Program-made: the position numbers and the translations under genes
The notes under the pieces: model-generated
The model's input: only the letters and a program-made list of their open reading frames with translations
Databases searched by the model: none
Told to the model about the DNA's origin: nothing
Shown here: positions 2,214-59,179 of the stretch, piece after piece
How positions within the stretch are numbered: the first letter of the stretch is position 1
Layout: each line of letters starts with the position of its first letter
DNA from: a virus
Lineage: Duplodnaviria; Caudoviricetes
Virus record (IMG/VR): IMGVR_UViG_3300033073_001761
Span: 4,547 to 68,546 of that record
DNA: 64,000 bases
Strand: one strand, 5' to 3'

Positions 2214-2516
2214 TTATTCTGGAGAATATTCCTCGCATCGGTAGCAGTGCTCACGCGGGCGGACGCGGCGACCAAGTAGCTCGCATTCGCGGGGCCAGGA
2301 GAAAGGACAGGAGCCGGGTTTGCGCGAACCTGGATCGACTAGCTGGCCGAGGTGCTCGCAAGGTCGAGCGGCAAAATTGTTGGCGCGGATAGGGCCGACG
2401 GGAGAAGATACCTGGGGAGCTTCGGCCCTAATCTGGGGAGCTTCGGCCCTTGCCTGGGGAGCTTCGGCCCTTGCAGCCGATTTTGCGAGATCAAACAACC
2501 GAGAACTCGAGCGCAT
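2214..2516 (-). CDS. Small Cys-rich hypothetical protein with RAEAPQ repeats
   Basis: C-terminal part of track ORF 2214..2591: PCEHLG...C...C...CYRCEEY; start inferred at ATG 2516. Confidence 0.45.
   Translation of the reverse strand: MRSSSRLFDLAKSAARAEAPQARAEAPQIRAEAPQVSSPVGPIRANNFAARPCEHLGQLVDPGSRKPGSCPFSWPRECELLGRRVRPREHCYRCEEYSPE
2412..2474. repeat. 21-bp tandem repeat x3 (CTGGGGAGCTTCGGCCCTTGC)
   Basis: Three direct copies with no spacers. Confidence 0.95.
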
Positions 2517-3546
2517 CGATCGCACCTGGCTTGTCAATAGTGATGCAACCACCAGCCGGGCCAACAAACGGCAACGCCGCGGCGATCGCAATATCGGGGA
2601 AATCTGGATCGTTACCCGGCCAGTCGTCCTCGAATCTTACGCGACCTACCCACTGCTGCGATCCAAACTCGGGGTCGGCACGATCGTAAAACGCGTCGGC
2701 CCAAAGCACCCGAACGTCGGCAGCTGGAGCCAGCCCATTGACGTGACCTAAAGAATTGCTCACCGAATCCAACCAGACCAGCGGCACGTGCGGCCGGCAC
2801 CAATTGACGCCACCGAGGTCACCGCCGTGATTCGGGCCTCGGCAGGTATTTGCGATCGTCGCTGGCGAGTAAACGTAGCGGTCGATTTCGACGCCGAAAC
2901 TCACGGACGGCTGCACGGCGCTCGAGTAATTCCCCTGGAGCAGCGTATCACAATCGCGGCTATCGTTCGGCAGGTTGCTAATCGTCGCGGTCACCGAGTT
3001 TGGCTTGCTCGCGGCCAGCCAGCGGGCGAGGGTGACAAAGGGCACCAAGGCAAACGTTTCGCCGGCGAGCCCAGATTCCGACCGTGGGCAGATTTTGCGT
3101 CGGCCGGCTTCTAGGGATTCGTCGACGACAGATACTAGGTTGTCGGCCTCGGCATCATAGACGTAATTCGCGTAGTAGTCGTCGTCCCAGAGTGAAAGGT
3201 CAATGCCGTGCTGCAGTGTTTCGCCGACCGTAGCCTTGCGAATTCTTAGCACCGCGCCAATTCCGTCACCTTCATCGTCACGTGTGTAATACCAAGCGTC
3301 CGTGTCTTGCGACAAGTATTTGACAACGAGCCCCGGAACGCCGGCATAACCGGGATTCGGGATTCTCGCACCAGTCGGCACGCCGTTTAGATTCGCGTAC
3401 GTTTCGATGAGTATTAGCGTGTTTTGCCAGGGAGCTTCGCCGAGGATTCGCTGCGTGCGATCGACGGAAGCCGTGCGGGCCGACAGGTAGGGTCGCTTGA
3501 TTCGGCAGTCGGTCTGACAGCAGCAAAAGCCAAGTCCGAAGCCCAT
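2491..3546 (-). CDS. Hypothetical, probable virion/tail protein
   Basis: 351 aa; N-terminal CCC motif; end of the late minus-strand operon. Confidence 0.6.
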   Translation of the reverse strand: MGFGLGFCCCQTDCRIKRPYLSARTASVDRTQRILGEAPWQNTLILIETYANLNGVPTGARIPNPGYAGVPGLVVKYLSQDTDAWYYTRDDEGDGIGAVLRIRKATVGETLQHGIDLSLWDDDYYANYVYDAEADNLVSVVDESLEAGRRKICPRSESGLAGETFALVPFVTLARWLAASKPNSVTATISNLPNDSRDCDTLLQGNYSSAVQPSVSFGVEIDRYVYSPATIANTCRGPNHGGDLGGVNWCRPHVPLVWLDSVSNSLGHVNGLAPAADVRVLWADAFYDRADPEFGSQQWVGRVRFEDDWPGNDPDFPDIAIAAALPFVGPAGGCITIDKPGAIDALEFSVV

Positions 3547-3575
3547 AGCTACCTTCTCCCGCTGGCCTGGACTGC

Positions 3576-5063
3576 CTACTCGCCCGCCTGCTCGCAGTTG
3601 TACGCGATCACAACACCGTCAACCGCTGCAATCGTCGTCGCCGCCGGCAGCACCTGCGACGTCGCTAATAGCCCGGCATCAGAAACGACTGTCCCGCCTG
3701 CGGTCGTCGCGGTTCCCTGGCTCACCAGTTCCTCGGTCAGAGTGCTGACATACAGGCCACCAGTTTCGGTCTGGTGTCGGATCGGTGGAGCGATGACCGG
3801 TAGCTCGCGGCGAATCAAAGTAGTTGTCAAACTGTTCTCGATCAATTTGAAAATGGCATCAGTCACCGCCGAACCGTCGACGTTGATTTCTAATCCAGCG
3901 GCGTAAACCCTCCGCATCGGTGAGGCCGCGGCCGCGGATCGATCGAAGTATCTTGCGGCGATGTCGGCCCAAGGATCGGCAACGTCGTCTCGGCCTGGCA
4001 GCGAATCTTGTACCCGCGGCACTTGCACCCGCGCTGTCGTTTCGCGGACCACTTGCTCGGCGGTTCGGCCGGAATCCACCGTCGCCGGCGACCACGGTTG
4101 CGGGTCGTCGTGGTCAACTGGCCGGCGGGAGAAGAGGTCAACCCGCTCAACCTCAAACGCACCTCGGAATATCAGCGGGCGAGCGTCGTAGATCAAATAG
4201 CCGGCAATTTTGCTCTCGATCCCGTCGTCGTTGTTGATCGTCGTATTACCCTTAAACGACAGCGAGTTGCCGTCAATCCTCTTGATCGCCCAGCCCTTGG
4301 TCGCGAAATCCCAGCCGATCACACAGTGTGCGTAGTCAACCAGCTCGCAGATCGCACGCCAGATTGACCGTTGCTCGAACCGCAAGTTTTCCGGCGTCCA
4401 AGTCGGCGCGTCGGGCCAGGCCGGCGGGGAAGTGAGCCCGTCGCCGCCCGGTTGCGTTGTGAACGGTAGTCGCGACCAGAGATCAGCCAGAATCTGCGAC
4501 CACGTCCACGGTTGCCCGCTCCGCAGTGTCGCAGCCTTGTAGTTTCGGGTATCACCAGTGCCGTTGCTTGCCCAGACATTGTAAGCCGCGGCGGGCCACT
4601 CGCTCGGTCGGGCACCTGCTCCCGCCGGCCCTCCGATCCCAGGACCAGTCGACGTACGTAGCCACCACCAGCGAGGGTCGACGACGCGACACGCGACGAC
4701 GGATTCGCTGCCGAGCGTTTCACCGTCTTCGGTTGTCAATTCGCGGACGGTTCGGCCGAAATACTCATACGCTTCGATAATTGTTAGATTGTGAATCTCG
4801 ACTGCCCAAGGTAGATTCGCAGCGTAGGGCGTGTTGTGGAATCGCAATGGCTTTAACTTGTCGACCATTGCAAGGTCATGATACTGTTTGACGGTTGAGC
4901 GAGGCAAGAGTATCCAGCCTTCGCCGTGATCCAGGCCGACCGGTAAGCGGAAAGTGCCGATTGGCAGGTCGGTGCGAACAATCGTCCCCTCGGCCTGGAG
5001 TTGCCGGGCTTGGGCGGTAGGTAGTCGCAGGCAGGGCCAGTCGCCGAAGGTGAGGCCGGGCAT
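3576..5063 (-). CDS. Hypothetical, probable tail/baseplate-hub-like virion protein
   Basis: 495 aa, coupled to the upstream ORF; function inferred from context only. Confidence 0.55.
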   Translation of the reverse strand: MPGLTFGDWPCLRLPTAQARQLQAEGTIVRTDLPIGTFRLPVGLDHGEGWILLPRSTVKQYHDLAMVDKLKPLRFHNTPYAANLPWAVEIHNLTIIEAYEYFGRTVRELTTEDGETLGSESVVACRVVDPRWWWLRTSTGPGIGGPAGAGARPSEWPAAAYNVWASNGTGDTRNYKAATLRSGQPWTWSQILADLWSRLPFTTQPGGDGLTSPPAWPDAPTWTPENLRFEQRSIWRAICELVDYAHCVIGWDFATKGWAIKRIDGNSLSFKGNTTINNDDGIESKIAGYLIYDARPLIFRGAFEVERVDLFSRRPVDHDDPQPWSPATVDSGRTAEQVVRETTARVQVPRVQDSLPGRDDVADPWADIAARYFDRSAAAASPMRRVYAAGLEINVDGSAVTDAIFKLIENSLTTTLIRRELPVIAPPIRHQTETGGLYVSTLTEELVSQGTATTAGGTVVSDAGLLATSQVLPAATTIAAVDGVVIAYNCEQAGE

Positions 5064-6919
5064 TAGTGCTTACCAAACAGAGTTAATAGACTGGAAAATG
5101 CTTGTGTCACTGCTTGTTGGAACGCGAGGTTTTCCATCGCGTCGACTATGGCGCCGGCACCCGAAAATGAACGATCGGTAGCTTTTTTGCTTGAATCTGT
5201 CCCACTAGAATCTTTCGCCGACGGGTGAGGCAGCTTTTTGCCAATCACTCGCTCAAGTAGCCTTTTCTGTCGAATGATCGTTGGTTCACTCGGATCATAC
5301 TGCACGCCGATAAGGTCCAAGGCGTGATTCAAATCTTGATCCACCATCTGCCTGACACCAGTTTCTTGAGTGGACAAGTAGCTAGGCAGTCGCCGATTGG
5401 AACCAGAGAACGACGGCGAATTACTTTTCGTCGATTTCTCTTCCTTAGCCTTCGATTGCTTTTGCAGTTTCTGTTTTTGCTGTCCCTTCCCTTTTGTCAC
5501 GTCCTTGACTTCGCCTTCGATTCCGTACTTTCGCCGATATTTCTCAGCCTGCTCTCGGCTCGGGAACCACCTCTTTGTTCCTTCGATCCGAAATCCCATT
5601 CGCCGCTTACCGCTAGACGCAGACGTCGGAATCCCTCGCGATTGCAATTCCGCTCGCGACGCCGCACGCACCGGCCGATTCTGCAACCGTCCACTGGTCC
5701 CCAGGTCAGGAAGCGGGAACGCGGAACCACCTTTACCTTTATCCGTCCCGAACAGCCACGGCCAGGCCAAAGCTAAGCCGTCGCCCGTGTCACTCTTCCC
5801 GCCGATCAAATAAGGTAGCCCACTTGCAAAATCCTTACCCGCAGCGTGCAGCGGGCCGAGCGCCCAGGCGACGGTCGCGATACCGCCGAGGATTCCGACA
5901 CCGATTGCAATTCCTGGCGCGCCCACAGCCATCATTGCCCCGACGGCCAGCATTGTACCCTTGCCCAGCCCGTACGCTGCAGACCCGGCGATTGCAAGTT
6001 TAACCGCTCGGCGGCCTAGCTCGGCCACTCCCTTGGTATAATTGCTTACCGCTCGGCTAACGATACGACCGGTGAGCCAATCACCTGCGTCGAGAGTCTC
6101 CCACATGACCCGGCTCAGGTTCTTTGCGAGGGCCATGGCCGCGAGGCCGACGCCGCGAGGGTCTTTCGCCTTGTCGGCCCGTTTCGATAAGTTTTCGACA
6201 ATTCCGCGAACACCTTCGGCGAGATCTGCGGCTGATTTGGACTTCGTCAAGACCGCCGCGACCATCCCCTGCATCGCATTGAACGCGCCAGCGTCCAGCC
6301 CGTCGATTACTGGTGGCTGAGCCTTAGTGACCGCGTCCGTTAGCCGCTGTCGAATCCGCTGCGTGTGATTTTTTCTCGCGGCGACGACGTCAGGGTCTTT
6401 CGCAAGCCGTGCTACTTGGTCGGCAATCCCATCGAAATCGGCTTCGGCGTCAGCGAAAGCGGTGGCGACAATAGATTCTGGAGATTCTGGGCCAGCGCCC
6501 TCGCCTTCGCTATCGCCACCCTCGCTTGCACCTGCGCCGCCACTTCTCCCGCCGGCCTCGGTCTTATTGCCATCGGCGAACGCGGCCGTTTCCTCGGCTT
6601 TAGCCTCTTGCCGTTCGCCATACTCAGCCGCTGCATCGCTGGTCGCACGATCTTCGCCGAGTTCGCCGCCGCCGCTCCGGCCGGAGCGAGTTTCGAGCAC
6701 CTTGCCTCCGGTCCGCTTCGCGACGACCGCGGCCTCTTCGGGCTCCAGTCCGTATCTCGGCGGGCGACCGTCTTGGTAGGCGACCTTGACACCCATGCGG
6801 CGATAGCTGGGATTCGTGTAATAGACCTTGGCCTGGTCCCTGAGAGTCTTCTTATACTCCGGAAATAATTGGAGTATTGTTCGCCGGGTGCTAGGCGATA
6901 GGTTAGCAAATGCAAGCAT
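5063..6919 (-). CDS. Putative head-cargo/ejection protein with two RMG modules and a hydrophobic hairpin
   Basis: RRMGVKV... and RRMGFRIEGTKRWF... modules; Gly/Ala-rich TM hairpin; paralogous to 7290..8288 and 23428..24357. Confidence 0.65.
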   Translation of the reverse strand: MLAFANLSPSTRRTILQLFPEYKKTLRDQAKVYYTNPSYRRMGVKVAYQDGRPPRYGLEPEEAAVVAKRTGGKVLETRSGRSGGGELGEDRATSDAAAEYGERQEAKAEETAAFADGNKTEAGGRSGGAGASEGGDSEGEGAGPESPESIVATAFADAEADFDGIADQVARLAKDPDVVAARKNHTQRIRQRLTDAVTKAQPPVIDGLDAGAFNAMQGMVAAVLTKSKSAADLAEGVRGIVENLSKRADKAKDPRGVGLAAMALAKNLSRVMWETLDAGDWLTGRIVSRAVSNYTKGVAELGRRAVKLAIAGSAAYGLGKGTMLAVGAMMAVGAPGIAIGVGILGGIATVAWALGPLHAAGKDFASGLPYLIGGKSDTGDGLALAWPWLFGTDKGKGGSAFPLPDLGTSGRLQNRPVRAASRAELQSRGIPTSASSGKRRMGFRIEGTKRWFPSREQAEKYRRKYGIEGEVKDVTKGKGQQKQKLQKQSKAKEEKSTKSNSPSFSGSNRRLPSYLSTQETGVRQMVDQDLNHALDLIGVQYDPSEPTIIRQKRLLERVIGKKLPHPSAKDSSGTDSSKKATDRSFSGAGAIVDAMENLAFQQAVTQAFSSLLTLFGKH

Positions 6920-7293: not shown

Positions 7294-8288
7294 CGGAAAG
7301 TCCTCGCTTGTTTCTTGCCGCGTCGCGGTGGCAACGCAAACGGGAACGGCGATCCGCCCCGATTTTTGTCAGACGAAAATAAGAACGTCCAAGCGAATCG
7401 GATCGGAGCACGCGGGCCAAGGTAGTCGAGCCCGTCCTTGCTACCGCCGAGACGGAATAGCGATTGCAGTAAATCTTGGTGAGCAGCCGCCCATGGGCCG
7501 AGCGTCCAGAGGGCACCAGCGACCATCGAGCCGAGGAAAACCTTACTCGCGACCGCTGAGCCCATAATCCCCGCGAAAATCACTGGTGACGCGAAGGAAA
7601 AGCCGATCACGCCGAGCACGCCCCAAGCAATGCCGACCATCACTGATCGCTTATACACGTCATAGATTCTGGTTCCCTGGAACTGTCTCGCTCCGTTGGC
7701 GATTTGCCGGCCGAGAAACCGAGCAGCCTTGCCGAGCGTCGATTGCTCTTGCGGTCCTTGTTCGGAGTATTCGCGGAGCTGTCGGACACCGCCGTAGTAA
7801 GCATCGTGCCACTGCTCGGCTGTCTGGGCACCGAGCATGCCGCGGATCATGCTGCCCGCGATTTGGCCGGCGGGTGAAGGGTGCTGTTGGCCGGTGATGT
7901 AAGGGTCGGATCGGTCCCAGACTGGTTGCGGGACCGATTGCAGGATCGGGCCGGTCTGCCGGGCAAGCTGCTCATGCTGGGCGTAGATTGCTTCCGGCGA
8001 TAAGGCTTCGTGGTACGATTGGTGCTGCGATTGCTGCGATTGCGAATATTGAACTGGCTGCCCAAACTGGTCGTAACCGCCGTGATTTTGGCCGCTTTGG
8101 CGAGGTTCGTAGACTTCGCCACCGTGATGTTGGGCGTAGCGATGCGCAGATTGTTCGTCGTCGAAGTAGTAGCGATCGCCGGAATGAGTCAGAACGGCTG
8201 TCTGGGCCATCCGAAAGAATCGACGGCCAGCGGCGGGCGATGGCAGCGACAAGATTTGGTCAATCAGTGTTGCTGCTGCTGCTGCCAT
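7290..8288 (-). CDS. Putative head-cargo membrane protein with RMA module
   Basis: FRMAQ...YYFDDEQSAHRYAQHHGGEVYE module; hydrophobic hairpin; C-terminus FAWTFLFSSDKNRGGSPFP matches LAWPWLFGTDKGKGGSAFP of 5063..6919. Confidence 0.65.
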   Translation of the reverse strand: MAAAAATLIDQILSLPSPAAGRRFFRMAQTAVLTHSGDRYYFDDEQSAHRYAQHHGGEVYEPRQSGQNHGGYDQFGQPVQYSQSQQSQHQSYHEALSPEAIYAQHEQLARQTGPILQSVPQPVWDRSDPYITGQQHPSPAGQIAGSMIRGMLGAQTAEQWHDAYYGGVRQLREYSEQGPQEQSTLGKAARFLGRQIANGARQFQGTRIYDVYKRSVMVGIAWGVLGVIGFSFASPVIFAGIMGSAVASKVFLGSMVAGALWTLGPWAAAHQDLLQSLFRLGGSKDGLDYLGPRAPIRFAWTFLFSSDKNRGGSPFPFALPPRRGKKQARTFR

Positions 8289-8387: not shown

Positions 8388-9452
8388 TTACCAAGGTTGG
8401 GCAGTTCGCAGTAGCGAGTTCTTTTGCTGAATCCGAAAGCCCATCTTTATGCCGGCGGGAGAAGGTGCCATCGCCCTCGCCCCCATCAACTCACGAATCG
8501 GCGTCAGCCCCATCGCGACAAACCCTTGCCCCTGCTTCAGCAATTTTCGCGGCGGGGCTTGCATGCGGAAGGGATTCTTCGGCGGTTGGCCAGTCTTTAG
8601 CCACTCTTCCGCCTCGCCGACGCCAAGTTTCGCAGCATCCTTGATCGTCAAAGGAAAGACGTTACAACGACAATTGAAGTGTCTGACGGGTTTCAATTTC
8701 GCGTAAACAGGATCGTCCGCTCGATAAACTGACGTGCCATCAATCCCGGCCGTCGCGAAATACTGGCATAACTTCGTTCGCCGGCCATCCGCAATCGACG
8801 AATCGTACAGATACGGAAACGCCTCGCCGACAATCGGATCGTCTAATACTCGCTCCAGTCCGTCGTGGTAGCTTTGGTTGACGGCCACTCGGTACACTGT
8901 CTCCAGGTGCGCGTCAGACAGTGGAGAACCTTCGCCGGCGACAGCTTCGGCGATCATTTCTTTGGCTTTCGCGATCGACGGACCCTCGGCCAAAATCTCG
9001 GTAATTGCCGTCTGGATTCGCTCGATCACGTCTTCGGAGTGTTGGCCCGAAACGGTGAAGTGCTTGTCTCGCTGCTCCGAATCCAGAGCATAGAACTCTT
9101 CGGCGGTCAGGATGCCGCGATTGCTCAACGCCTGAATCGCGGCCGCAGTTTTCGGAAACTTCGCGACCTCGGCCAAGTCGGTCATTTCACGGCCGCTGAA
9201 TCGTCTTGCCGGAATAGACGCGGCCGCATCGCCGGCGGAACGGAGATACGCTTGCAAAGCCGTGTCGGCAACCTGGTCGCTAAAAATCCCCTCATATTCC
9301 GTGAGAATCTCAGTTACTCGCCGGTCGAGTTCTTCGGGCGGCAATACCTTTGGATCGCCGATACGCGAGTTGAGCTCACCGATCAGCGACTGGACAATCG
9401 CAGAGTGCTGAGTAATCGCGTCGTTGATTAGCCGGCGGTAATCTGGGGTCAT
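8388..9452 (-). CDS. Phage Mu F-like minor head (morphogenesis) protein
   Basis: HLETVYRVAVNQSYHDG; DGRRTKLC; PVRHFNCRC (MuF P.HxNCRC motif). Confidence 0.85.
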   Translation of the reverse strand: MTPDYRRLINDAITQHSAIVQSLIGELNSRIGDPKVLPPEELDRRVTEILTEYEGIFSDQVADTALQAYLRSAGDAAASIPARRFSGREMTDLAEVAKFPKTAAAIQALSNRGILTAEEFYALDSEQRDKHFTVSGQHSEDVIERIQTAITEILAEGPSIAKAKEMIAEAVAGEGSPLSDAHLETVYRVAVNQSYHDGLERVLDDPIVGEAFPYLYDSSIADGRRTKLCQYFATAGIDGTSVYRADDPVYAKLKPVRHFNCRCNVFPLTIKDAAKLGVGEAEEWLKTGQPPKNPFRMQAPPRKLLKQGQGFVAMGLTPIRELMGARAMAPSPAGIKMGFRIQQKNSLLRTAQPW

Positions 9453-9480: not shown

Positions 9481-12400
9481 TTACCAACCACGTCCACGAC
9501 GGCGGTTCATCCGATCTTCAATCGCCTTTATCAGCCGCAGCATTTGATTGTCGTTCAAACCACCCTGGAAACCAGCGAACAACACCCTGGCTCCGATTTC
9601 AGATTGTCCGAACTTACCGCCTTTCGCGTAGGCGGTTCGGTACTCTCGCCTTTGCTCCTCCTCGGACAGCTTGTCAAACTGCCGCCAAGCATGGGCAAGA
9701 TTTCGATACTTGTCGGAACGCGAGTAATCGCCGCCGACGGCATCGAAAACGGCACCAGAGAATTCGAGTTCGGTTGGCAAACCAGGGCCAGCTTTAGCCT
9801 CGGCCTTCAGTGTTTCGTCGCGATCGTACTCTTCCTGAGTGGCCGGACGATTGCCGCTCGGTTGTTTCTCGCCCGTGCGGGACTTGCGAGGGTCATACGC
9901 TTTAGTCAGCAAGTGCATGATCAGCTTTGCCTGTCGCCGATTTCTTACCTCGCCGCCAACAAAGTCGATCCCCAATTCGTCGAGCAAACCATTCAATTCA
10001 TTGTCAGAGAGTGCCGTAATATCGTTTCCGACAGCGTAAGCTTCGTCGAAGGTAAATCGATCACGATTGGCGAGTTTCCGGATACGGTCGATATTTGCCG
10101 GAGCCTTTTCAGGAGCCTTCGTTGGCTTGCCTTTTCCTTTTTCTTCGCCGATTACAATTCCGGCCTTCTCGACGATATTCTTATGATCAAACGCTAATTC
10201 CATGTCACCCAGCTTGTCAACGTCGATCCACTGAGCGTCGCTTGCGTCGTCCGACCCGCGAACGTCGTCAAGATTGGCGGCGGTTGTGCTAGGAATGTGC
10301 AACTGGAACGCCGTCGAAACTGCCCAGGCTTTCGGGTTGTCTCGCGGATCGCGGCCGCTCGGCTTTTTCTTATCGCCAAAGACGCCAACCTTGGCCATGT
10401 TGGCTTTAATCGTCTTTACGTCCAGGCCGGTTTCCTCGGCAAGCTCGCGAATCGCCGCGTCTTCGACGGATTCTCGGCCCGGCTTCCAGCGTTGGCCCTT
10501 GGGAGCGTCGGTATCATGGAACCCGCCAGGCAGAGCCCACTTACCGTTTTCCCATTTGCCCTTGCGTTTGATCAGCAGTATCTGCTTTTTCCCGTTCTTT
10601 CCGTCGCGAGTAATCACAGTATCAACCGTCGGATTAGGACCGGGCCGGTAATACGGTTGCTTTTCCGTGCCCCAGTCGCCTGGTTCCGAATCTTCTTTGG
10701 CCTTGGCCTTGGCCTTGGTTTTGGTGGTTGCGGCTTTAGTTGCTGTTGCCTTTTTGCTACCACCACCACCAGGCTTCCTGGTCACATCCCTGACCTGGCC
10801 CTCAATCCCATATTTCGTTCGATATTTCTCGGCCTGTTCTCGGTTCGGGAACCAGCGTTTTGTACCCTCGACGCGAAAGCCCATTTGCCGAGTTGGCGAC
10901 TTCTGGCTACCCTTACCTGCTCGTTTTGATTTCGATCGCTTAACCAAGTGCCGAACGATCCGCGAGACAATTTGCGAATCCTTTTCGGTTCGCTTGGCAG
11001 GTAATCCAAGCTTCGCAGATAGATCGATCAAATCGTCGAGGTGCAAGTTCTGGTAAAGACTTTGGCCGGCTTCTCTGATCTGCTTGACGCTGCCGCCATC
11101 TCTTGCGAGTAACCTCGCCGCACGCATAATCTCGTATTTTTCGGCATGCGCGTCGGCAAGTCCTTTGGCCTCGACGTGATCGTGGAGTCCAGTACCGCGA
11201 TAGTGATAGTACAGTTTCCGAAAATTGCGGGACCGAGCACTATTGTCGGTTGGCCACTCATCTTCCTCGCCCGCTTCCTCGAACTCCGGCGGTACCATCT
11301 CAAGCCATTCGTCTTCATCAGGCTTCCGGGTCACATCGACTACCTCGCCACCCGATTGCTGCGCGAATTCGCTCGCCGCGGCTTGGTCAGCAAACCAGCG
11401 ATCACCGACCTTGAAGCCCATGCGGTGCTTCTTACGTTCTTCGTAACGTTGGTTTTCTCGCACACGTTCGGCAAAATCGAAAGCATCGCCACCCATGAGC
11501 AGGTTTTCGATCCCGGCATCCAAAACGCCATCAATAGTGTCGCCCAGGTCGTCGGATGGCTCAGGCTTAGTGACAGGTGGCTGAGGTTTCTTGGCTGGCC
11601 CTTCAGCGGGCTTTCCGACTTTCGCGGCAACTTTCTCGGAGAACCTTTTCTTTCCTTGACCCTGACGGCTCACATCACGCACTTCGCCGCCGGACGCGGT
11701 CGCGTAAGCCTCCGCCTTGGCGCGATCACCAAACCATCTTTTGCCGACCTTGAAGCCCATGCGTCGAAGCGGATACCAGGTTGCCTCGACCGCGTGTTGC
11801 ACATTCCCCCGCCGGCGAGTAATTCGCGACCAGAGGGACATTCGTATCTCGTGCGTTGCCTCTGGCTGTGACCGAAAAGCGTACCGCAGAACTTTTGCAG
11901 CGGTCTCTTTCGCAGCCATAGAAATATCGGGGTGCTGGCCGCGCAAGTGTCGCAAACGATCACCGAGCCCAACAGCTGAAATCGCGGTGTCCGGGTGTCC
12001 GATCCCACCGCGAGCAATATCGAGAGCGACTTGCCCGGCTGCTTGCGCGGCCTGCAACGCGACAATCTGCGGGTGTTCTTCCGGCGTGCCGCTCTGCGTG
12101 AGCCGCTGCCGCGTAACGGCAAGATCGCGAACCGCAGCTTCGATCTCACTTGCCGGCACGCGACCGGGCCGAACGCCAGCTTCGCGGATCAATCGTAGTG
12201 CCAGCAACGGCCGCTGATCGGCCTTTTGCCCGCCAAGCGAAAACGTCGATCGTTGCCGAATCGTTAGTATTTCCTGCTCCGCGTCGTCAAGGGACGCAGC
12301 GACGGTGGCCTGCAACCGCTGGTGTGGTGCCATTCGGCTCAAGGTCAAGCCAATCACACCAGGCCAAGCACCGTGGACGACACCCGAGGCGATCGCGTGC

Positions 12401-14358
12401 GCCATCTGGACATCGCCCATCGCTGCGATGGAATCGGCGCTGTCCATCCAGGATTGGTCGCTGTGCCAATCGCGGTCGGCCAATCGATCGGCGCGGTCAG
12501 CGGTAAACGGCTGCGAGTAGGCTGGGCTGGGCATCGGGCCAAGTCCAGGGCCGGCGGGAGAAGGTGCCTTCGGCGCGGCCGGTAGGTCGTCGATTAGCTC
12601 GGCTCGGTGCCCAGGCGATCGTGGCGGCGGTGGAGCCATTAGATCGACGGGCATCGGTGCAGGTGCGATCGCCGGTAATTCGGGTGACAGATAATCGACG
12701 TTTGGAACTGGTCCAGGTGGTGGTGGCGATTGCATTTTCGGTTGTGGACCAGGGCCAGGACCAAGATTAGGACGGCCGGCGGGAGAAGGTGCCCCACCAG
12801 GCGATCCTTTCGCTGCAGCCACCAGTGTCCGGGTAATCGCCTGCAGCAGCAACGGCCGCGTCGCTTTCTTTCCGTCGCCACTGCCAATATCTGCGCCCAA
12901 GCCCTCGGCCACGGCCTGGATCACCGGCACCGGTGCTTTCTCGATCACCGCGAGCTCGGCACGTGCTTCAGCCGGTGGCAGTGTCCGCACTCGCTCGACC
13001 AGTTTTTTCGCTTCGGGCACTGTCCGGATTGGCTTCGGCGGCTTCGCATTTTTCGCGATCTCGGCGGCTAGCATCTGCTGAACGCCCGGTTGAGCCCGTC
13101 GTGAGAGATACCGTTTCAACGCCTCTTTTTGGTCCACCGGTATTCCGCCCGGCGCCGTGTCCAGGCCGACTTCCGCCATGGCTGCGCGAGCCTCGGCGCC
13201 GGTCATCGAATCGATATCGCGGATCATTTGAATCGCGACTTCGGGCGGCGAAACGCCGATTTGGTCGACCGCCGAGCGGTACCGTTGAGCCGCCGACTCC
13301 CGTTGCTTTTTCCGTGTGCCTGCCTTGTCGGTGAGTGCAAATAACGCCTCGGTCGCTTGCTCGCGAGTGATCACGCCCGCGGCCAGGTCGGTCGTGATCT
13401 TGTCAATCGCCTCCTGGTCGACCATTCGCGATTTCGAGACGCTCTTGCCCTTGGCGCCCTTGCCTTTGCTCTTCCCGCCGGCCTCTTCATCGGGCGTTCC
13501 GGTCGCGAGTTCGTCGATGCCCTCCATGATCTGGTCGACAGCTTCGGTGAGCGGCTTGTCGCCGATTAGCAGATCGCGGACAATTCGGCCGATCGCACCG
13601 TGCATCGTGTTAGGCTCGACGTTGTGGAAGTGTCGAACCTTCGCGCCCTTTTTCTTCTGGTTGAGCTCCATCGCGACGCCAACTAAGTGGCTCACTGCGA
13701 TATACGGATGAATCTTGCCCTCAACCGCATCTTGGGCAATTTGGCCAACAGTCGCTACTACCTGGTCACGGCCGACCGGGCCACCGAAGTAAATCTGGCC
13801 ACTAGGCACATCTTCCGGCTGAATATCGTCAGGCCAGCCGATCGCCTTTTCGATCTCGTTTCGCCGCTTGGTCTTTGCTCGGTCAGCGGCCTGCTTTTGC
13901 TTGCTTGCCTCTTCCTTGCTCAGGAAATCGTCATACTCTCGCTCTTCGCTGAGAATGCTCTGATACACCGGATTGGACGCACGCTCCGTTGCGTCGTCGA
14001 CCTTCTTTCGGCCGAGCGCGCTTATCATTGACTGGCCAGCCAAAGGATCGGTTTCGTCGGTTTCAAACACCGTAAACCGGCCCGACCGACGAACATATTG
14101 AGGCAGATCATCTGGATGCACTTCAATCGTGTTGCCGGTTCGCTCCGAGACGTATCTTGCGCGAGCGGCCATACGCCGCATCGTCGTACCGGCCTTGGCA
14201 ACCGTGCGACGATATTGCCGATCAGGGATGACCTGTCGGCCAGCCTGAGCAAGCAAAGTCGTCGCGATTGCCGAAGGGTCGGCACCCGATCGCATGATTG
14301 CCAAAATCTGGTGGCCACCTAGCGGTCGCTGCTTGGCGTTGTCTTTAGTTTTGCCCAT
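9481..14358 (-). CDS. Giant modular (polyvalent-type) virion protein with Nudix hydrolase domain
   Basis: Nudix box GGF...GRESVEDAAIRELAEETGL; three RMGF modules; start placed at ATG 14358 (TGATG overlap with the upstream stop). Confidence 0.8.
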   Translation of the reverse strand: MGKTKDNAKQRPLGGHQILAIMRSGADPSAIATTLLAQAGRQVIPDRQYRRTVAKAGTTMRRMAARARYVSERTGNTIEVHPDDLPQYVRRSGRFTVFETDETDPLAGQSMISALGRKKVDDATERASNPVYQSILSEEREYDDFLSKEEASKQKQAADRAKTKRRNEIEKAIGWPDDIQPEDVPSGQIYFGGPVGRDQVVATVGQIAQDAVEGKIHPYIAVSHLVGVAMELNQKKKGAKVRHFHNVEPNTMHGAIGRIVRDLLIGDKPLTEAVDQIMEGIDELATGTPDEEAGGKSKGKGAKGKSVSKSRMVDQEAIDKITTDLAAGVITREQATEALFALTDKAGTRKKQRESAAQRYRSAVDQIGVSPPEVAIQMIRDIDSMTGAEARAAMAEVGLDTAPGGIPVDQKEALKRYLSRRAQPGVQQMLAAEIAKNAKPPKPIRTVPEAKKLVERVRTLPPAEARAELAVIEKAPVPVIQAVAEGLGADIGSGDGKKATRPLLLQAITRTLVAAAKGSPGGAPSPAGRPNLGPGPGPQPKMQSPPPPGPVPNVDYLSPELPAIAPAPMPVDLMAPPPPRSPGHRAELIDDLPAAPKAPSPAGPGLGPMPSPAYSQPFTADRADRLADRDWHSDQSWMDSADSIAAMGDVQMAHAIASGVVHGAWPGVIGLTLSRMAPHQRLQATVAASLDDAEQEILTIRQRSTFSLGGQKADQRPLLALRLIREAGVRPGRVPASEIEAAVRDLAVTRQRLTQSGTPEEHPQIVALQAAQAAGQVALDIARGGIGHPDTAISAVGLGDRLRHLRGQHPDISMAAKETAAKVLRYAFRSQPEATHEIRMSLWSRITRRRGNVQHAVEATWYPLRRMGFKVGKRWFGDRAKAEAYATASGGEVRDVSRQGQGKKRFSEKVAAKVGKPAEGPAKKPQPPVTKPEPSDDLGDTIDGVLDAGIENLLMGGDAFDFAERVRENQRYEERKKHRMGFKVGDRWFADQAAASEFAQQSGGEVVDVTRKPDEDEWLEMVPPEFEEAGEEDEWPTDNSARSRNFRKLYYHYRGTGLHDHVEAKGLADAHAEKYEIMRAARLLARDGGSVKQIREAGQSLYQNLHLDDLIDLSAKLGLPAKRTEKDSQIVSRIVRHLVKRSKSKRAGKGSQKSPTRQMGFRVEGTKRWFPNREQAEKYRTKYGIEGQVRDVTRKPGGGGSKKATATKAATTKTKAKAKAKEDSEPGDWGTEKQPYYRPGPNPTVDTVITRDGKNGKKQILLIKRKGKWENGKWALPGGFHDTDAPKGQRWKPGRESVEDAAIRELAEETGLDVKTIKANMAKVGVFGDKKKPSGRDPRDNPKAWAVSTAFQLHIPSTTAANLDDVRGSDDASDAQWIDVDKLGDMELAFDHKNIVEKAGIVIGEEKGKGKPTKAPEKAPANIDRIRKLANRDRFTFDEAYAVGNDITALSDNELNGLLDELGIDFVGGEVRNRRQAKLIMHLLTKAYDPRKSRTGEKQPSGNRPATQEEYDRDETLKAEAKAGPGLPTELEFSGAVFDAVGGDYSRSDKYRNLAHAWRQFDKLSEEEQRREYRTAYAKGGKFGQSEIGARVLFAGFQGGLNDNQMLRLIKAIEDRMNRRRGRGW

Positions 14359-16579: not shown

Positions 16580-17221
16580 ATGGCCAAAATCAAGCGGCGG
16601 ATCGGTAACGCCGGTCGCCCCCGCAAATCTGACCTAATCCACGACGAACGCCCGCAGGCCACGGAAAATCTGGTCTGGCTAATGCGCCAAGCTGGAGACA
16701 CACCCAAAACGCTCTCGGAAAAGATCAACAGCAGCGGGCTGACCAAACAGCGGGTGACCCGCCAGCAGATCGCGCAACTAATCCACCGGATGCCATTGAA
16801 GCGCACCGCTCGCCCCGAAATCGCCGCGATTGCAAGGTATTACGGGTACACGATGGATCAAATCTACGGCGAGGATTTGGCCGGCGGGGGAAGGATGCCC
16901 ACGGCTCAGGCAGCAGCGATGATTGCCGCGCGAACGGTAGCGATGGCAAGAGAAGCGAAGGAGCCGAAAGAAGCGAAGGAAGCGACGCTCTTTGATGAGC
17001 CAGATACTGCTGCCGCTGCGACCACGGCTACTGTCGCTGCGACCGCGGCACCTTCTCCCGCCGGCCCTAACTCCGAGATTGACCAATTCTTGGCAACCGC
17101 GCGAAAACTGGCAACACTTTCGGCCGTGGCAAGCGGTGCAGCTGCCGAATCAGGGCCAGATCGGGCGTGGTTGAGTCGGGCGGAACAGTTGGCCGAGGCG
17201 TTTCGAGGGCTAGTGCGATGA
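16580..17221 (+). CDS. XRE-type HTH transcriptional regulator
   Basis: NLVWLMRQAG...TLSEKI...VTRQQIAQLI...IAAIARYYGYTMDQI; start moved to ATG 16580. Confidence 0.7.
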   Translation: MAKIKRRIGNAGRPRKSDLIHDERPQATENLVWLMRQAGDTPKTLSEKINSSGLTKQRVTRQQIAQLIHRMPLKRTARPEIAAIARYYGYTMDQIYGEDLAGGGRMPTAQAAAMIAARTVAMAREAKEPKEAKEATLFDEPDTAAAATTATVAATAAPSPAGPNSEIDQFLATARKLATLSAVASGAAAESGPDRAWLSRAEQLAEAFRGLVR

Positions 17222-27048: not shown

Positions 27049-27060
27049 CAGGTATTCCAG

Positions 27061-40374: not shown

Positions 40375-40439
40375 ACTCTCCTAGGCCGGCGGGAGAAGGT
40401 GACACCCGGACCAGCCCGCGCGGCATGTGCAGTTGCAAA

Positions 40440-44309: not shown

Positions 44310-44495
44310 AGTTTCGCTTTCGCCGCTCATTTCGCTGCTGCTCGAACTTCTGATATTCATCCCAATATTCTTGGTAATGGTGGCTGTCGATTGGAAAGTG
44401 GATTAGAAAATGCGTGCGGACGATAACATAGTTGCCATACTCGGTGACTACCTCGAATAGTGGTTCAAGCTTCAGGGGTTTCATCTAACCGCCCC

Positions 44496-50608: not shown

Positions 50609-51127
50609 TCACCTTGGTTGCGATTGCAGTTGCAAGTACTCAGTCTGAAACAAGCCAGCCGCAGCTAACCCGCGAAAAAACTCGGCAACTTCCCAGTAGG
50701 ACGGATGAATCACCGATCGGTATTTCGGACTGAGGTAATCTGCGATCGAGTAGTAGTTATCCGAGACCCAGCCGAACTCTGGCGAGTTGCAATTACTGCA
50801 TGCGGGATTACGCCATGGCCGATTACAGCGGCTACAGACGGCCAAGAAGACGCGATCGCCTACCAGACGGATCAGATAGCCTTCTTGGTCGCGATCGTTT
50901 GCGGTAGCCTGGCTAGCGGCGATCGCAGGTGGAGCCTGGATCAGTCTGGCCAACGGGTGATTGTCAGGGCCGGCGGGTGAAGGTGCCGCGGTGGCCACTG
51001 GCTCGGCGATTCGGAACACCGCCCGCAAGGCGATCTCACCGCCGACCAGGTGATAAGCCCGACGCAAGCGGTTGCGGAAGCGATTGACCAGGCGGATTCG
51101 CGGATGCGGCTGCGGCTGCTGGTTCAT
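50609..51127 (-). CDS. Hypothetical Zn-ribbon protein
   Basis: CSRC...CSNC; start ATG 51127 overlaps the primase stop. Confidence 0.55.
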   Translation of the reverse strand: MNQQPQPHPRIRLVNRFRNRLRRAYHLVGGEIALRAVFRIAEPVATAAPSPAGPDNHPLARLIQAPPAIAASQATANDRDQEGYLIRLVGDRVFLAVCSRCNRPWRNPACSNCNSPEFGWVSDNYYSIADYLSPKYRSVIHPSYWEVAEFFRGLAAAGLFQTEYLQLQSQPR

Positions 51128-55017: not shown

Positions 55018-55019
55018 GG

Positions 55020-57380
55020 CTAAAATCCCTCCGCCATTGCCAACATCATTGACTGCTCAACCGACCGCTCGATCACTTCACGGAGCCCGGTTACTCGCTC
55101 ACCGATCGCTGTTTTTTTGCACTGCTGCTCAATTCGGTGAGCGACGCCGACGACCGCGCAATACTGTTTCGCTCGCGAGATCGCTGTGTAATGGAGCTCG
55201 CGAGTAGCTAGCCAATTGGCCGCGGGCGACGTGTCGGCGACATAGATCACGTAGGGCGATTCGCTGCCCTGCGATTTGTGGACGGTGATCGCATAGGCTA
55301 ACGACAAAACCGAGTTCGGGCCTGATACTGAGCAGCGGCAGAGCCGGCGGGGAGATTGCCACTCGACCTCGACGACAGACCGGTCAGCGCGAGTGATGTA
55401 TCCGATGTCACCGTTGCTCACGAACGTCACTCGTGATCGCCTGTCCTTGGTGCTCACTTCGACGTCATCGAGATCGCGACCCCAGGTCTGATGGTCCTCT
55501 TCCGACTCCAGGCAGACCATTCGCGTATTTTTCTGGCACATGACCTTATCCCCGAGGCGGAAACGCGACTTTCCAATATTCGGGCCAGGGTTTAATAATT
55601 GCTGGAGCCAATCGTTAAGCTGGTCCTTGCCGAGATCGCTTTTCTTGTTGGTGATGCAGAGCACTTGAACGCTCTTTACCGGGTCCCAGCCCGCAGCTTT
55701 CGCGCTCGCGATCAGCTCCAGGATCGTCTGTTTCGCCGAATCCGGCGTGGTCGCGGTCCAGTGTGCAAAATTGCTCTCGGGCTCCGCCTGACCAGGCCAG
55801 TACTTGCCCTTGCCGATTTCGTCGCATATTTCGACGATCTTGCCAGCGTTGCGACGTACTTCGGTCAAGTGGCCACGCGGTATCAGTTGGCTCTCGATCA
55901 GGTCACGAAACGGTGCCCCCTCGCCGACGGGGAGAAGTTGCCCAGGGTCGCCGACGAAGAGCACGTGGCTGCCAACTTGTACCGCCGAGAGCAGGGCTGC
56001 GAGCAACCGAGAATCGACCATCGATGATTCATCAACGATCAGGTAGCACGGCGGGAGCGGATTCGCGGCGTTGATCCCGAATCCATCCCCGACCCACATT
56101 AGTAGCCGATGGATCGTCTGCCCCTGAATACCAAGGCCAGCAGCGCCCATCTGCTCGGTGATTCGCACCGCCGCTTTGCCGGTTGGCGCGACGACGAAAA
56201 TTGGGACGATAGACTCGCGGCGAATCGCGGCGATCAAGCGGCAGAGTGTGTACGTTTTGCCAGTGCCTGGCCCGCCCGTGAAAAGGCCGACCGGCAGCGA
56301 CGTTGCCTCGGTGATTTGCTCGACTTGGTGATCGCTGAGTCCATCGCTTAGCCCGTCGTCATCAATCGTGACACCTTCTCCCGCCGGCCGGATACTGGGC
56401 CAGTGCGTCTCTCCGCGGAGCAATTGCGAGATTTTGTCGGCAATGATGCGTTCGGCGGCTGCAGACTCGGCTAGCGCGATCCGAGATCCGTGATCCGTGG
56501 CGAGATAGCCGGCTCGCAACCCGAGTTGAATAGCCTTGGTCAATCGCAGTTGCCCGCTGACTAACTTGCCAAGCTGCTCGCGGACCCAATCGAGCTCAAA
56601 CCAAGTGTGACCGTTGCCGTTGGTGTCGATCGCGTGACAGATGGCAAGTAGCTGCCGTCGCAATTTGTCCGGTCGGTAGCCGAGGTCCAGCGCGAGCAGG
56701 TCAGCACGCAGAAACCCAACTCCCGGGTACCGAAGTAGCAAATAGGGATTCCGGCGGACAGCAACTGCAGCTTCGTCGCCGTATTTTCTAACGATCTTCG
56801 GAATGAGCGATTTCGGAAACCCGCGGCCATGAAATAAGGTCATCAGCTCGACGACGGTACGCTCGCTCGCCTTTTTGCCGTTGAGTATCGCCGCGGCTTG
56901 CTTCGCGATCTCGCACCGTAGTCCCTGGATCTCTGACGCTACTTGATCGGGATTTTCGCGGAGCGTCTCGATTGCTTGATCGCCGTACTGTTCGACCAGT
57001 CGGGCCGCAATTTTGTCACCGATCCCCGGGCAATGGCGCTGCAGGTATTCAATCCGGCCGCGGCTGGTGTCGGGTAACTGCTCCTCGGCAAACTCAAACT
57101 GAAATTGCTTGCCGTACTGGGGATGCTCGACCCAAGAGCCGAAGAACCGGTATTCGTGCCCTTGTTTAAGCTCGCCTTCGCCGGCAAGCCCGGTGATTTT
57201 CTGCCCGCCGCGGAGTTTGGCGAGGAACCAGTCGTCGCGCTGGCAGATGACCGTTTGCACAATCCCGGTGATGCTCGTGGAATCGTCTTTCGGTGGTGGC
57301 GATTGCGGTTGCGGTTGCTTTTTCTTGGTACCGCCTTCGTAATCTTCCGGGTCGTAATACCCTTCGTCGGTGTAGCTCAT
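55020..57380 (-). CDS. recD2: RecD2-like SF1B DNA helicase
   Basis: GGPGTGKT, VDESSMVD, VGDPGQL, AYAITVHKSQGSE, YTAISRAK; N-terminal HhH (PGIGDKIA). Confidence 0.92.
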   Translation of the reverse strand: MSYTDEGYYDPEDYEGGTKKKQPQPQSPPPKDDSTSITGIVQTVICQRDDWFLAKLRGGQKITGLAGEGELKQGHEYRFFGSWVEHPQYGKQFQFEFAEEQLPDTSRGRIEYLQRHCPGIGDKIAARLVEQYGDQAIETLRENPDQVASEIQGLRCEIAKQAAAILNGKKASERTVVELMTLFHGRGFPKSLIPKIVRKYGDEAAVAVRRNPYLLLRYPGVGFLRADLLALDLGYRPDKLRRQLLAICHAIDTNGNGHTWFELDWVREQLGKLVSGQLRLTKAIQLGLRAGYLATDHGSRIALAESAAAERIIADKISQLLRGETHWPSIRPAGEGVTIDDDGLSDGLSDHQVEQITEATSLPVGLFTGGPGTGKTYTLCRLIAAIRRESIVPIFVVAPTGKAAVRITEQMGAAGLGIQGQTIHRLLMWVGDGFGINAANPLPPCYLIVDESSMVDSRLLAALLSAVQVGSHVLFVGDPGQLLPVGEGAPFRDLIESQLIPRGHLTEVRRNAGKIVEICDEIGKGKYWPGQAEPESNFAHWTATTPDSAKQTILELIASAKAAGWDPVKSVQVLCITNKKSDLGKDQLNDWLQQLLNPGPNIGKSRFRLGDKVMCQKNTRMVCLESEEDHQTWGRDLDDVEVSTKDRRSRVTFVSNGDIGYITRADRSVVEVEWQSPRRLCRCSVSGPNSVLSLAYAITVHKSQGSESPYVIYVADTSPAANWLATRELHYTAISRAKQYCAVVGVAHRIEQQCKKTAIGERVTGLREVIERSVEQSMMLAMAEGF

Positions 57381-57519: not shown

Positions 57520-58059
57520 TCAGAACCCTTGCTCGATTGCCTTAGTCGCTCCAAGCATCGTTTGATCCTTGGGTACGTTGGCCACATCGCGATCATCGAC
57601 TTGCCAGACCGAGCCGATATCAATCGAGTGGTAGGTCACCTTGTTGCCGTCCTTTTCGGCGTCCCGGGCCCTGATCCCGATCACGAGTTGCTTGCCGATT
57701 GCCGAGCTCCAGTCGAAATCAACCTCGCCCGCACGGTCAGCAATCGCCTGCAGCTTTTCCCATGTCGCAATTCCCTGGCCGCGGATCATCGCTCCGGCTT
57801 CGACCGCCAGCGTTGCGATTTGTCGCTGGTTAATCTCTCGAGCGCGATCGTTGTTCGGCTCGTGATTGAGCCGCTCGCGGTGAGTTTGACCGACACCGTC
57901 CGGATTCGTGCCAGCGTGAGCCACAAACACAAAGACGGTGTGCGGCTCTTTGTCTCGATCTCGCTCGCTGACGACCACGTCAGTCAACGTGACGTGATAC
58001 CGGCCGGCCGGTAAAGTCTGGATCGGTTGCGGCTTGCTCATTTTTCCTGTGACGCGCAT
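57520..58059 (-). CDS. DUF669-like (ssDNA-binding-type) protein
   Basis: LPAGRYHVTLTDV...IGKQLVIGI...; start placed at ATG 58059. Confidence 0.7.
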   Translation of the reverse strand: MRVTGKMSKPQPIQTLPAGRYHVTLTDVVVSERDRDKEPHTVFVFVAHAGTNPDGVGQTHRERLNHEPNNDRAREINQRQIATLAVEAGAMIRGQGIATWEKLQAIADRAGEVDFDWSSAIGKQLVIGIRARDAEKDGNKVTYHSIDIGSVWQVDDRDVANVPKDQTMLGATKAIEQGF

Positions 58060-58234
58060 TTCTAAACCTTTCTTTCTAATGATTGTGCAACCGTTTGCAC
58101 TTCTCTTGAAATCACCTCGGGCTCTTCGTCGTCCAAGACCCAGGTCGGCGGATAGCCCAGCACCGCCAACCCAGTCAGCCAGACCGCCGCGTCGCCGTAT
58201 CGCTGAATCAGCGGTCGGTACGCGGTCGGCCAAG

Positions 58235-59179
58235 TCAGTTTCCCAGCGTCGCAATCGTGCTGAGCAGCTCCAGTGCCTGCCGCTGCTTGAGCGCCGCTGC
58301 TGATTTTGCGCCGTAGCTGCCAAGTAGCGTCGACCACTGAGATTTGACGGCAGGATTCGCCCAAGCTTTTTGCAACCGGATCAAGGTTGCAGGGTTGACG
58401 GGTGCATCGTCTGGTTCGGATTCGGGCTCTTGGCCGGCGGGAGAAGGTGCCGATTCGACCACGGCGACCACCGCTGGTGCCGATTCCGATTCCGGGAACG
58501 CATCCTTCATCGCTTCGACCAATGTTGGGCCGAGTTGCTTGGGTGGAGCTGGGGCCGGAGCGGCAGTGTCAACAACCTCCGCGACCACCGATTTAGGTTG
58601 CGTCGCGGAGTCATCCTCGCCCACCGGCGGAATCTCCGAGATTTCGTAGATACCCGACAAGATATCTGGGAATTGGCGGCGGCAAGCTCGCGAAATTGCC
58701 CTCGCGTAGTGCATGTCCCGCGGATACTGCTTGTAGGTATCCTTGCTGTCCAGTTTGGCTTTTTTCGCGTCAGTCACGCCAAAAGACACGACAACATCAG
58801 GTTTCCCGGGTCGCTTGGCGGTAACCTTGCAGTAATCGTCGGTTTCTTCGATCACGAATTCACCGCCGGCTCGGGTGGCCAAAGCTTGCATCGTGGCCGC
58901 GCCAATCACGATTTTGCCGTTGTGGATACTGATGGTCTGCAAGCTCATCATCGGAGCGATACCGAGCTCCTGTCCCGCGAGCATAATCGTCAGCGCATCC
59001 TCAGGCGTTTTGGCATTGCCAATCCGATTCGCCGACTTGGCCGCGGCATTGGCAATTACCTGCAGTCGATCAATGAAGGCCAGGTATGCGGGCGGAGCGG
59101 CTGGAGCCAGCGTCGCGGTCGCAGCTGTCACTGGGTTTGCAATCTCGATTTCCGGATTCTGGGTTGTTGTCGCTGCCAT
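58235..59179 (-). CDS. RecT-like single-strand annealing protein
   Basis: MLAGQELGIAPMMSLQTISIHNGK; YPRDMHYARAISRACRRQFPD. Confidence 0.8.
   Translation of the reverse strand: MAATTTQNPEIEIANPVTAATATLAPAAPPAYLAFIDRLQVIANAAAKSANRIGNAKTPEDALTIMLAGQELGIAPMMSLQTISIHNGKIVIGAATMQALATRAGGEFVIEETDDYCKVTAKRPGKPDVVVSFGVTDAKKAKLDSKDTYKQYPRDMHYARAISRACRRQFPDILSGIYEISEIPPVGEDDSATQPKSVVAEVVDTAAPAPAPPKQLGPTLVEAMKDAFPESESAPAVVAVVESAPSPAGQEPESEPDDAPVNPATLIRLQKAWANPAVKSQWSTLLGSYGAKSAAALKQRQALELLSTIATLGN

Follow-up and report, generated by a model that had tools for sequence, protein, structure and literature searches.

A 20-base asymmetric word dispersed through the lytic genes of an uncultured temperate phage as a candidate genome-wide recognition site

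Dispersed recognition words are a second code written over phage genes, and this code can be strong enough to alter protein sequence. Stoperators, the only understood case among them, were described in Cluster A mycobacteriophages such as L5, Bxb1 and Trixie, where 20-30 dispersed asymmetric repressor sites are found per genome (PMC6550527, PMC9283540), predominantly in one orientation relative to transcription (PMC6550527). Cluster O mycobacteriophages carry a different type of repeat, the 17-bp sequence TGTTCGGNNNCCGAACA, which is present in more than 30 copies and whose function is unknown (PMC4351075). Here, we report the computational analysis of a dispersed word, GGCCGGCGGGAGAAGGTGCC, in the genome of an uncultured tailed phage (Caudoviricetes) that belongs to a lineage without cultured relatives. 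The analyzed stretch of 64,000 nucleotides, hereafter the window, comprises bases 4547-68546 of the 68,546-bp virus record IMGVR_UViG_3300033073_001761 in IMG/VR, which is rated 93% complete; coordinates refer to the window unless stated otherwise. Among the described systems, stoperators appear to be the closest understood counterpart of this word.

The initial annotation, made from the letters of the window, had reported 17 exact copies of a core sequence, 10 on the plus and 7 on the minus strand, together with at least 10 copies containing one mismatch. The recount returned the same 17 exact copies of the core CCGGCGGGAGAAG at the same places and with the same strand split, as compared to a mean of 0.01 in dinucleotide shuffles, and 11 copies with one mismatch; in total, 28 sites were found at up to one mismatch, while 0.28 are expected from shuffles. 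Over the whole 68.5-kb virus record, the exact core occurs 19 times. Alignment of the copies defined the full word as the 20-nt sequence GGCCGGCGGGAGAAGGTGCC; the existence of the earlier described 19-mer was thereby upheld and its length corrected by one base. At up to four mismatches, the 20-mer has 30 copies in the virus record, as compared to 0.07 for shuffled patterns, and no other k-mer in the genome is strongly over-represented. The word is a real and statistically overwhelming feature at the DNA level.

Positions 2-15 of the word form an almost invariant 14-base core, followed by the more variable positions 16-20. All copies have the same abrupt boundaries, the flanks hold no information, and the word is asymmetric, with no internal dyad. 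The invariant core contains approximately 22 bits of information, and the total information of the 20-mer (Rsequence) is approximately 26 bits, while approximately 12 bits (Rfrequency) would be enough to locate 30 sites within the phage genome. The word set is also surrounded by approximately 20 additional decayed copies with the common form GCCGGCGGG[A/G][A/G]A.

In total, 27 of the 30 copies are located within genes and three are intergenic. The peptide readings proposed in the initial annotation were recovered in all three classes: (A)PSPAG at 8450, 12549, 12774, 17048, 24288, 26940 and 58432, with further cases at 34105, 21543, 38829 and 50968; PAGE followed by G, A or V at 25088, 34382, 45973 and 56371; and AGGRSG at 6539 and 24094. 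The use of frames is uneven, with approximately 13 copies read as APSPAG, 6-7 as PAGE and 2-3 as AGGRSG. The remaining three frames would give GRREKV, GTFSRR and HLLPPA, and therefore the bias fits a dependence on peptide tolerance. When synonymous codons were permuted with the amino acids kept, an average of 2.1 exact cores (at most 4) remained of the 19 observed, so the protein sequences do not account for the enrichment. The APSPAG peptide is encoded by one codon string in seven of eight cases, and conservation along the word has no 3-nt periodicity, the third codon positions being as conserved as the others. Both copies read as AGGRSG share the same 3' variant, which avoids an Arg-Cys pair and leaves the core intact. 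These observations, together with the nuclease substitution described below, support a constraint at the level of the nucleic acid rather than the peptide, as had been proposed from the frame and strand independence of the motif.

The comparison of motif-containing proteins with their homologs, suggested previously as a check for insertions, was performed for three proteins. In the SNase-like nuclease, the word aligns without gaps on the conserved block E-x-K-P-x-G-[I/L] of five homologs: the Gly of the word coincides with the invariant Gly, and its Glu replaces the conserved Ile/Leu. This copy deviates from the consensus only at position 16, where a G-to-T change produces Val in a place that calls for a hydrophobic residue. 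The copy in the gene of the RecD2-like helicase falls in the linker that precedes the helicase core and brings no extra length, the phage protein being if anything shorter than RecD2 of Deinococcus. In the large terminase, it lies in a Ser/Pro-rich N-terminal tail that is naturally variable among homologs. Judged from these three alignments, the word arose by substitution into existing residues rather than by insertion, and at least once, in the nuclease, the protein paid a price for it. A mobile mini-insertion, such as a MITE-like (miniature inverted-repeat transposable element) cassette, was also considered and rejected as unlikely, because none of the three alignments has a gap at the word; the flanks of the copies likewise contain no information.

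The copies are divided between the strands in a ratio of 17 plus to 13 minus, with an order that alternates without pattern, and their spacing is indistinguishable from random (coefficient of variation (CV), 0.92; random, 0.95). No copies were found in the first 3.8 kb of the genome, which encodes the integrase and a PAS protein, or in the last 5.5 kb, which contains plus-strand accessory genes and tRNAs; these two copy-free ends account for 13.7% of the genome (P = 0.012). All coordinates and reading frames of the initial annotation were confirmed, including the special placements that it noted. The copy at 40384 is intergenic, the one-mismatch copy at 3549-3567 (-) that had been assigned to a ribosome-binding site ends 2 nt ahead of the ATG of gene 2491-3546, and the terminator behind the major capsid gene is motif-like in both stem arms, CCGGCGGGCGAG and CTCTCCCGCCGG. 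Outside the window, 0.65 kb to its left (L053:3836-3917 in the coordinates of G000), two inverted copies separated by a 38-nt spacer lie on either side of the initiation codon of a gene for a class-3 lipase; at the RNA level, this pair is predicted to form a hairpin of -48 kcal/mol (z = -5). Scans for promoters and terminators yielded chance-level results only, and no Rfam family matched at the copies of the word. A sigma-54 promoter reading of the GGCAC...GC pattern was rejected by eye, since the GG-to-GC spacing is off by one and the orientation is mixed.

The distribution of the word was studied by searches in genomes, metagenomes and proteins. None of the other 2.9 million contigs in IMG/VR contains the 19-mer, and the 14-mer core gives single matches only in that database. 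In 596 Gb of genomes representing 185,579 species, 33 single matches to the 19-mer were detected, never more than one per hit, and these 33 hits have no similarity to the phage. In 401 genomes of the phylum Planctomycetota, the 14-mer occurs at most three times per genome, the same as a reversed control, and a scan of Joint Genome Institute (JGI) metagenomes produced one unrelated match. The IMG/VR relatives identified by the large terminase, none of them above 46% identity, lack such a word, and nothing comparable occurs in three long contigs from distant relatives. The search for close relatives among 5.8 billion proteins gave 39% identity at best. Among the sequences searched, the word is repeated in no other genome and appears to be specific to this phage lineage. 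Neither of the two outcomes named as refuting in the initial annotation was observed: the synonymous shuffle did not preserve the enrichment, and no genome searched, including the 401 of Planctomycetota, carried the word above single-match or control level.

The close relative of the phage is represented by short contigs from sequencing run X2 of another study (wastewater, 2022), which are approximately 90-95% identical to it. This X2 relative keeps at least four copies of the word, namely those at 12549 and 26940 plus the two inverted ones around the lipase start codon, whose 38-nt spacer is identical. Since copies are retained in a relative from another study, the word is not an assembly artefact. 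The X2 contig across 26821-27202 is 98% identical and spans the copy at 26940, next to which (window position 26959) it has a 21-nt in-frame insertion that would add the seven residues SADAATA ahead of APSPAG. As far as these contigs allow a comparison, the word has survived some divergence. A protein search for the X2 relative with the 1637-aa virion protein gave no match, and the source contig is the sole recorded location of the capsid protein. The copies located in the window are listed in Table 1 together with the associated terminator and the candidate readers discussed below.

Table 1. Copies of the word in the window, the motif-like terminator and candidate DNA-binding readers
Feature	Position	Strand	Reading or context
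Degenerate copy, 3 mismatches	2393..2412	+	
Copy, 3 mismatches (1 to core)	3548..3567	-	2 nt before ATG of gene 2491-3546; supplies Shine-Dalgarno-like GGAGAAGG
Copy, exact core	4120..4139	+	In gene 3576-5063(-)
Copy, 1 mismatch	4611..4630	-	GPAGAG
Copy, exact core and 3' variant GAAGTGGC	6538..6557	-	AGGRSG
Degenerate copy, 4 mismatches	7865..7884	+	
Copy, 1 mismatch	8450..8469	+	APSPAG; close to C-terminus of MuF-like protein
Degenerate copy, 4 mismatches	11798..11817	-	In gene of 1637-aa virion protein
Perfect 20-mer	12549..12568	+	APSPAG; in gene of 1637-aa protein; also present in X2 relative
Perfect 20-mer	12774..12793	+	APSPAG
Degenerate copy, 4 mismatches	16879..16898	+	
Perfect 20-mer	17047..17066	-	In plus-strand gene, still APSPAG; orientation flips along with gene
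Degenerate copy, 4 mismatches	21307..21326	-	
Copy, exact core	21543..21562	+	NPSPAG
Copy, exact core and 3' variant GAAGTGGC	24093..24112	-	AGGRSG
Perfect 20-mer	24288..24307	+	APSPAG
Copy, exact core	25087..25106	-	VPAGEA
Perfect 20-mer	26940..26959	+	APSPAG
Intrinsic-terminator-like hairpin	27060..27107	-	After major capsid gene; motif-like stem arms, then T-run
Copy, 1 mismatch	34105..34124	+	APSPAG; variable N-terminal tail of large terminase
Copy, 1 mismatch	34381..34400	-	RPAGEV; conserved block of SNase-like nuclease
Candidate reader, 186-aa HTH protein	34845..35405	-	Resembles small terminase
Copy, 2 mismatches	36113..36132	-	In sliding-clamp gene
Copy, exact core	38829..38848	+	TSPAG
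Intergenic copy, 1 mismatch	40384..40403	+	Directly upstream of ribosome-binding site, gene 38308-40374
Candidate reader, 131-aa protein	43965..44360	-	LexA-type winged-helix DNA-binding domain only
Degenerate copy, 3 mismatches	45339..45358	+	
Copy, exact core	45972..45991	-	KPAGEG
Copy, 1 mismatch	50968..50987	+	APSPAG-like; open reading frame 50609-51208(-)
Copy, 1 mismatch	56370..56389	-	RPAGEG; linker ahead of helicase core, RecD2-like helicase
Perfect 20-mer	58432..58451	+	APSPAG; RecT-like gene
Candidate reader, 69-aa HTH protein	60200..60409	+	In AT-rich divergent region

Nearly all genes of the phage are directed leftward. The assigned structural and packaging genes encode the large terminase, a small-terminase-like helix-turn-helix (HTH) protein, the major capsid and decoration proteins, portal-like and MuF-like proteins, and a 1637-aa virion protein that carries a Nudix domain. 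The replication and recombination genes encode a sliding clamp, a 1000-aa primase/polymerase-like protein, the RecD2-like helicase, an ERCC4 nuclease, the SNase-like nuclease and a RecT-like protein. A tyrosine integrase (Pfam PF00589, E = 1.6e-19) is encoded at the left end, and therefore the phage is temperate. Apart from the three candidate readers in Table 1, an 84-aa HTH_17 protein (62789-63043) is among the small DNA-binding candidates. The AT-rich divergent region 59900-60484 is probably the genetic switch; within it, the segment 60030-60200 contains short repeats of its own (variants of TTAGTTTAG and CTAAATTTAAC) and sigma-70-like hexamers, and the open reading frame of the 69-aa HTH protein follows. 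The adjacent gene 60484-61095 (+) encodes a 203-aa protein with no DNA-binding signal and with a single, remote relative among 1.8 billion representatives, a 1096-aa repeat protein that it matches in 11 stretches, so that the 203-aa protein carries a repeat unit of approximately 50 aa.

The word is probably a selected recognition site for some sequence-specific factor. As the overall explanation, we tentatively favor, without ranking it as probable, a DNA-level recognition site of such a factor that marks the lytic gene block. According to this proposal, selection would keep the 20-base word at approximately 30 places within the lytic block of a temperate phage, where it would be written into existing codons by substitution, in the frames that yield the best-tolerated peptides (APSPAG, PAGEG). 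The putative reader would be a sequence-specific protein, probably phage-encoded and probably monomeric, that binds asymmetrically to double-stranded DNA. The initial annotation had suggested a RecD2-like helicase, an HTH protein or a packaging protein such as terminase as possible binders. A core of approximately 22 bits would suffice to mark phage DNA while hardly touching a host chromosome several megabases in size, roughly as is the case for stoperators and T7 promoters. Its use would most likely lie in genome-wide control of the lytic block, for instance its silencing or roadblocking in the lysogen in the manner of stoperators; that the word works as such a stoperator-like repressor system is possible and yet rather doubtful. 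The analysis demonstrates the copy number, the constraint at the DNA level, the origin by substitution, the restriction to this phage and the retention in a close relative, while the existence of a protein reader, its identity and the effect of its binding are inferred.

Several observations weigh against a DNA-level recognition site of this kind. Orientation relative to transcription is unbiased, with 17 copies against and 13 with it (P = 0.58), and the putative switch region lacks the word, carrying different repeats instead. The location of 27 of the 30 copies in genes is unlike that of most known operator-type sites. Seven copies match over all 20 bases, which is beyond the typical need of a protein site (approximately 26 versus 12 bits) and could equally reflect conversion between copies or a reader that acts through base pairing. 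Finally, the sole known close relative is available as fragments, which fall short of measuring the divergence of the core against that of synonymous flanks.

Other explanations place the selection elsewhere or dispense with it. If the selected unit were a peptide, for example a linker or protease site with the sequence APSPAG, and the DNA identity its by-product, this would agree with the fact that a single frame turns 13 of the 30 copies into (A)PSPAG, in many cases next to G, P, S or N. However, the same DNA gives PAGEG and AGGRSG on the other strand and also occurs between genes, APSPAG with other codons was never seen, and both the loss of enrichment in the synonymous shuffle and the conserved third codon positions speak for the nucleic acid; this explanation is largely excluded and improbable in the extreme. 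A host-related signal, which might be an uptake sequence, a recombination signal resembling Chi or part of a repetitive extragenic palindromic (REP) element of the host, is largely excluded by the genome searches and remains highly improbable, even though the bias towards frames with harmless peptides resembles that of uptake sequences and the host may be missing from the databases. Against it stand the chance character of the single 19-mer matches among the species representatives, the 14-mer counts at control level in Planctomycetota and the single unrelated metagenome match. The specific analogies drawn in the initial annotation were not supported. Chi and FtsK orienting polar sequences (KOPS) are polar words of 5-8 nt, while this word has 20 nt and no strand polarity (17:13 in random order); parS and matS are palindromes read by a dimer, while this word is asymmetric. 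A REP fragment is at odds with the lack of a dyad, the intragenic position of 27 of the 30 copies, the lack of repetition in the searched genomes and the absence of a transposase among the phage proteins scanned. An uptake sequence is, as far as the searched genomes go, at odds with single chance matches in the 185,579 representatives and at most three per genome in the 401 genomes.

The word could also be the target of a DNA-acting enzyme, that is, a site-specific nick or a start for a primase-polymerase or for recombination-dependent replication. Nick consensus sequences of approximately 9-20 nt are known on phage genomes (T5, tf and phiKMV-type nicks); an asymmetric site in similar numbers on the two strands would suit such a role, and the phage encodes the primase/polymerase-like protein, RecD2-like helicase, ERCC4 and SNase-like nucleases and RecT that might serve it. 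Nevertheless, this seems unlikely, as known primase start signals are much shorter and no phage nuclease could be tied to the word. We would give a similarly low chance to a functionless word that was spread and homogenized by short-patch gene conversion or annealing, with the help of RecT, and that persists where its peptide is harmless. The identity of seven copies over 20 bases, the information in excess of site frequency, the halo of decayed copies, the clustering of copies in linkers and tails, and the RecT-like annealing protein, whose own gene carries a copy, are all in line with this scenario. On the other hand, a 20-nt tract without flanking similarity is a poor conversion substrate, and we know of no mechanism that seeds new copies of such a word. 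Drift alone should not fix the displacement of a conserved hydrophobic residue in the nuclease, the edges are sharp and the same in all copies, and dispersed inverted repeats should be selected against as promoting rearrangements. An action at the RNA level is quite improbable: copies in opposite orientation would pair in the long leftward transcript, hiding ribosome-binding sites or making RNase III sites, and sense copies would resemble Shine-Dalgarno sequences. The hairpin around the lipase start codon with its spacer kept in the X2 relative, two sense copies directly before start codons and the motif-like stem of the capsid terminator are in its favor. It predicts a single orientation or paired placement, however, and neither was seen; most copies have no partner within 500 nt, close pairs are at chance frequency (CV as given above), and Shine-Dalgarno use is weak in this phage. 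A more speculative variant of the recognition site, for which the prospects seem slim, is a sequence-based address label meaning "this is phage DNA" that is read on both strands by a factor of at least approximately 22 bits. If true, such a label could keep the phage-encoded helicase and nucleases away from phage DNA, or could seed replication or recombination along the genome, and it would be a self-marking of a kind not described for phages without base modification.

Other features of the genome were recorded in passing. A terminase relative labelled as Gemmataceae and a cytochrome c (cbb3-type) domain protein at 43105-43794 (-), uncommon in phages and possibly indicative of the host, weakly point to a planctomycete host. 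Two type II hammerhead ribozymes are located amid tiny open reading frames at 1093-1157 (-) and 1452-1516 (-), with Rfam scores of 38.8 and 41.4 bits against a gathering score of 37. The gene 61732-62796 (+) encodes a product with an FGE-sulfatase/C-type-lectin fold; the phage proteins scanned included no reverse transcriptase. The AlphaFold model of a 688-aa protein was unusable (predicted local distance difference test (pLDDT) score, 32). At the right end, a tRNA at 63843-63915 has an anticodon that ARAGORN cannot assign, and a second tRNA-like gene at 63926-64000 ends exactly at the record end. An independent Logan right-end contig ends at the same tRNA as the virus record, which suggests an attachment (att) site or a genome end; an integrase look-up for the host flank found nothing. 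Two links between the word and these tRNAs were considered and rejected: a 10-nt match to the T-arm/acceptor stem of the phage tRNA at 63903 was judged to be due to chance, and a connection with quadruplet decoding by the odd tRNA was dropped, as the word holds no fitting 4-base codon.

Among known systems, the word shares with REP elements and their RAYT transposases the character of a short GC-rich repeat, and the initial annotation noted its resemblance to one arm of the palindrome CCTTCTCCC...GGGAGAAGG, one such palindrome forming the capsid terminator; REPs, however, form hairpins, are extragenic and abundant in the host, and come with a RAYT gene, none of which holds here. Like the uptake sequences of Neisseria (DNA uptake sequence, DUS) and Haemophilus (uptake signal sequence, USS), it lies over coding sequence in tolerated frames, with an exact core and softer flanks, but uptake sequences have hundreds to thousands of chromosomal copies read by the competence machinery, while this phage word is unenriched in the genomes searched. 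T7-type promoters are likewise asymmetric words of approximately 20 bp with approximately 17-30 copies and information well above the need set by site frequency. In contrast to the mixed and intragenic copies described here, they point with the genes, are mostly intergenic, and depend on an encoded phage RNA polymerase; no RNA polymerase family match was obtained in domain scans of the phage proteins, a result that does not prove absence, as several large proteins are unassigned. The Cluster O repeat is also a short, dispersed and invariant sequence of unknown function with intergenic and intragenic copies, but it is palindromic, suggesting a dimeric reader, and approximately 40% intergenic, whereas the word studied here is asymmetric and mostly intragenic.

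Stoperators double as the operator at the early lytic promoter and near the repressor gene, and are bound by a cognate monomeric immunity repressor. In both cases, the genome of a temperate phage is dotted with dozens of occurrences of a single asymmetric and almost invariant word (30 copies here, as compared to the 20-30 typical of stoperators), the information is high enough to avoid the host chromosome, the word is lineage-specific, and the phage has small DNA-binding proteins, with the word confined to the lytic block. The differences are that this word has 20 bp, 14 of them invariant, versus 13-14 bp; that it has no preferred orientation (17:13), with approximately 90% of the copies intragenic; that the search found none in 59900-60484, the putative switch region; and that the candidate HTH proteins have no detected similarity to the Cluster A repressors. 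Because the orientation bias is lacking and a copy at an early promoter was not seen, the word was not classified as a stoperator system. It is a novel variant within the genome-wide recognition words of phages, distinguished by being long, asymmetric, almost wholly intragenic and without polarity, in a lineage that possibly infects Planctomycetota. Identification of the reader would uncover either an unfamiliar mode of prophage silencing or a novel means by which a phage labels its genome.

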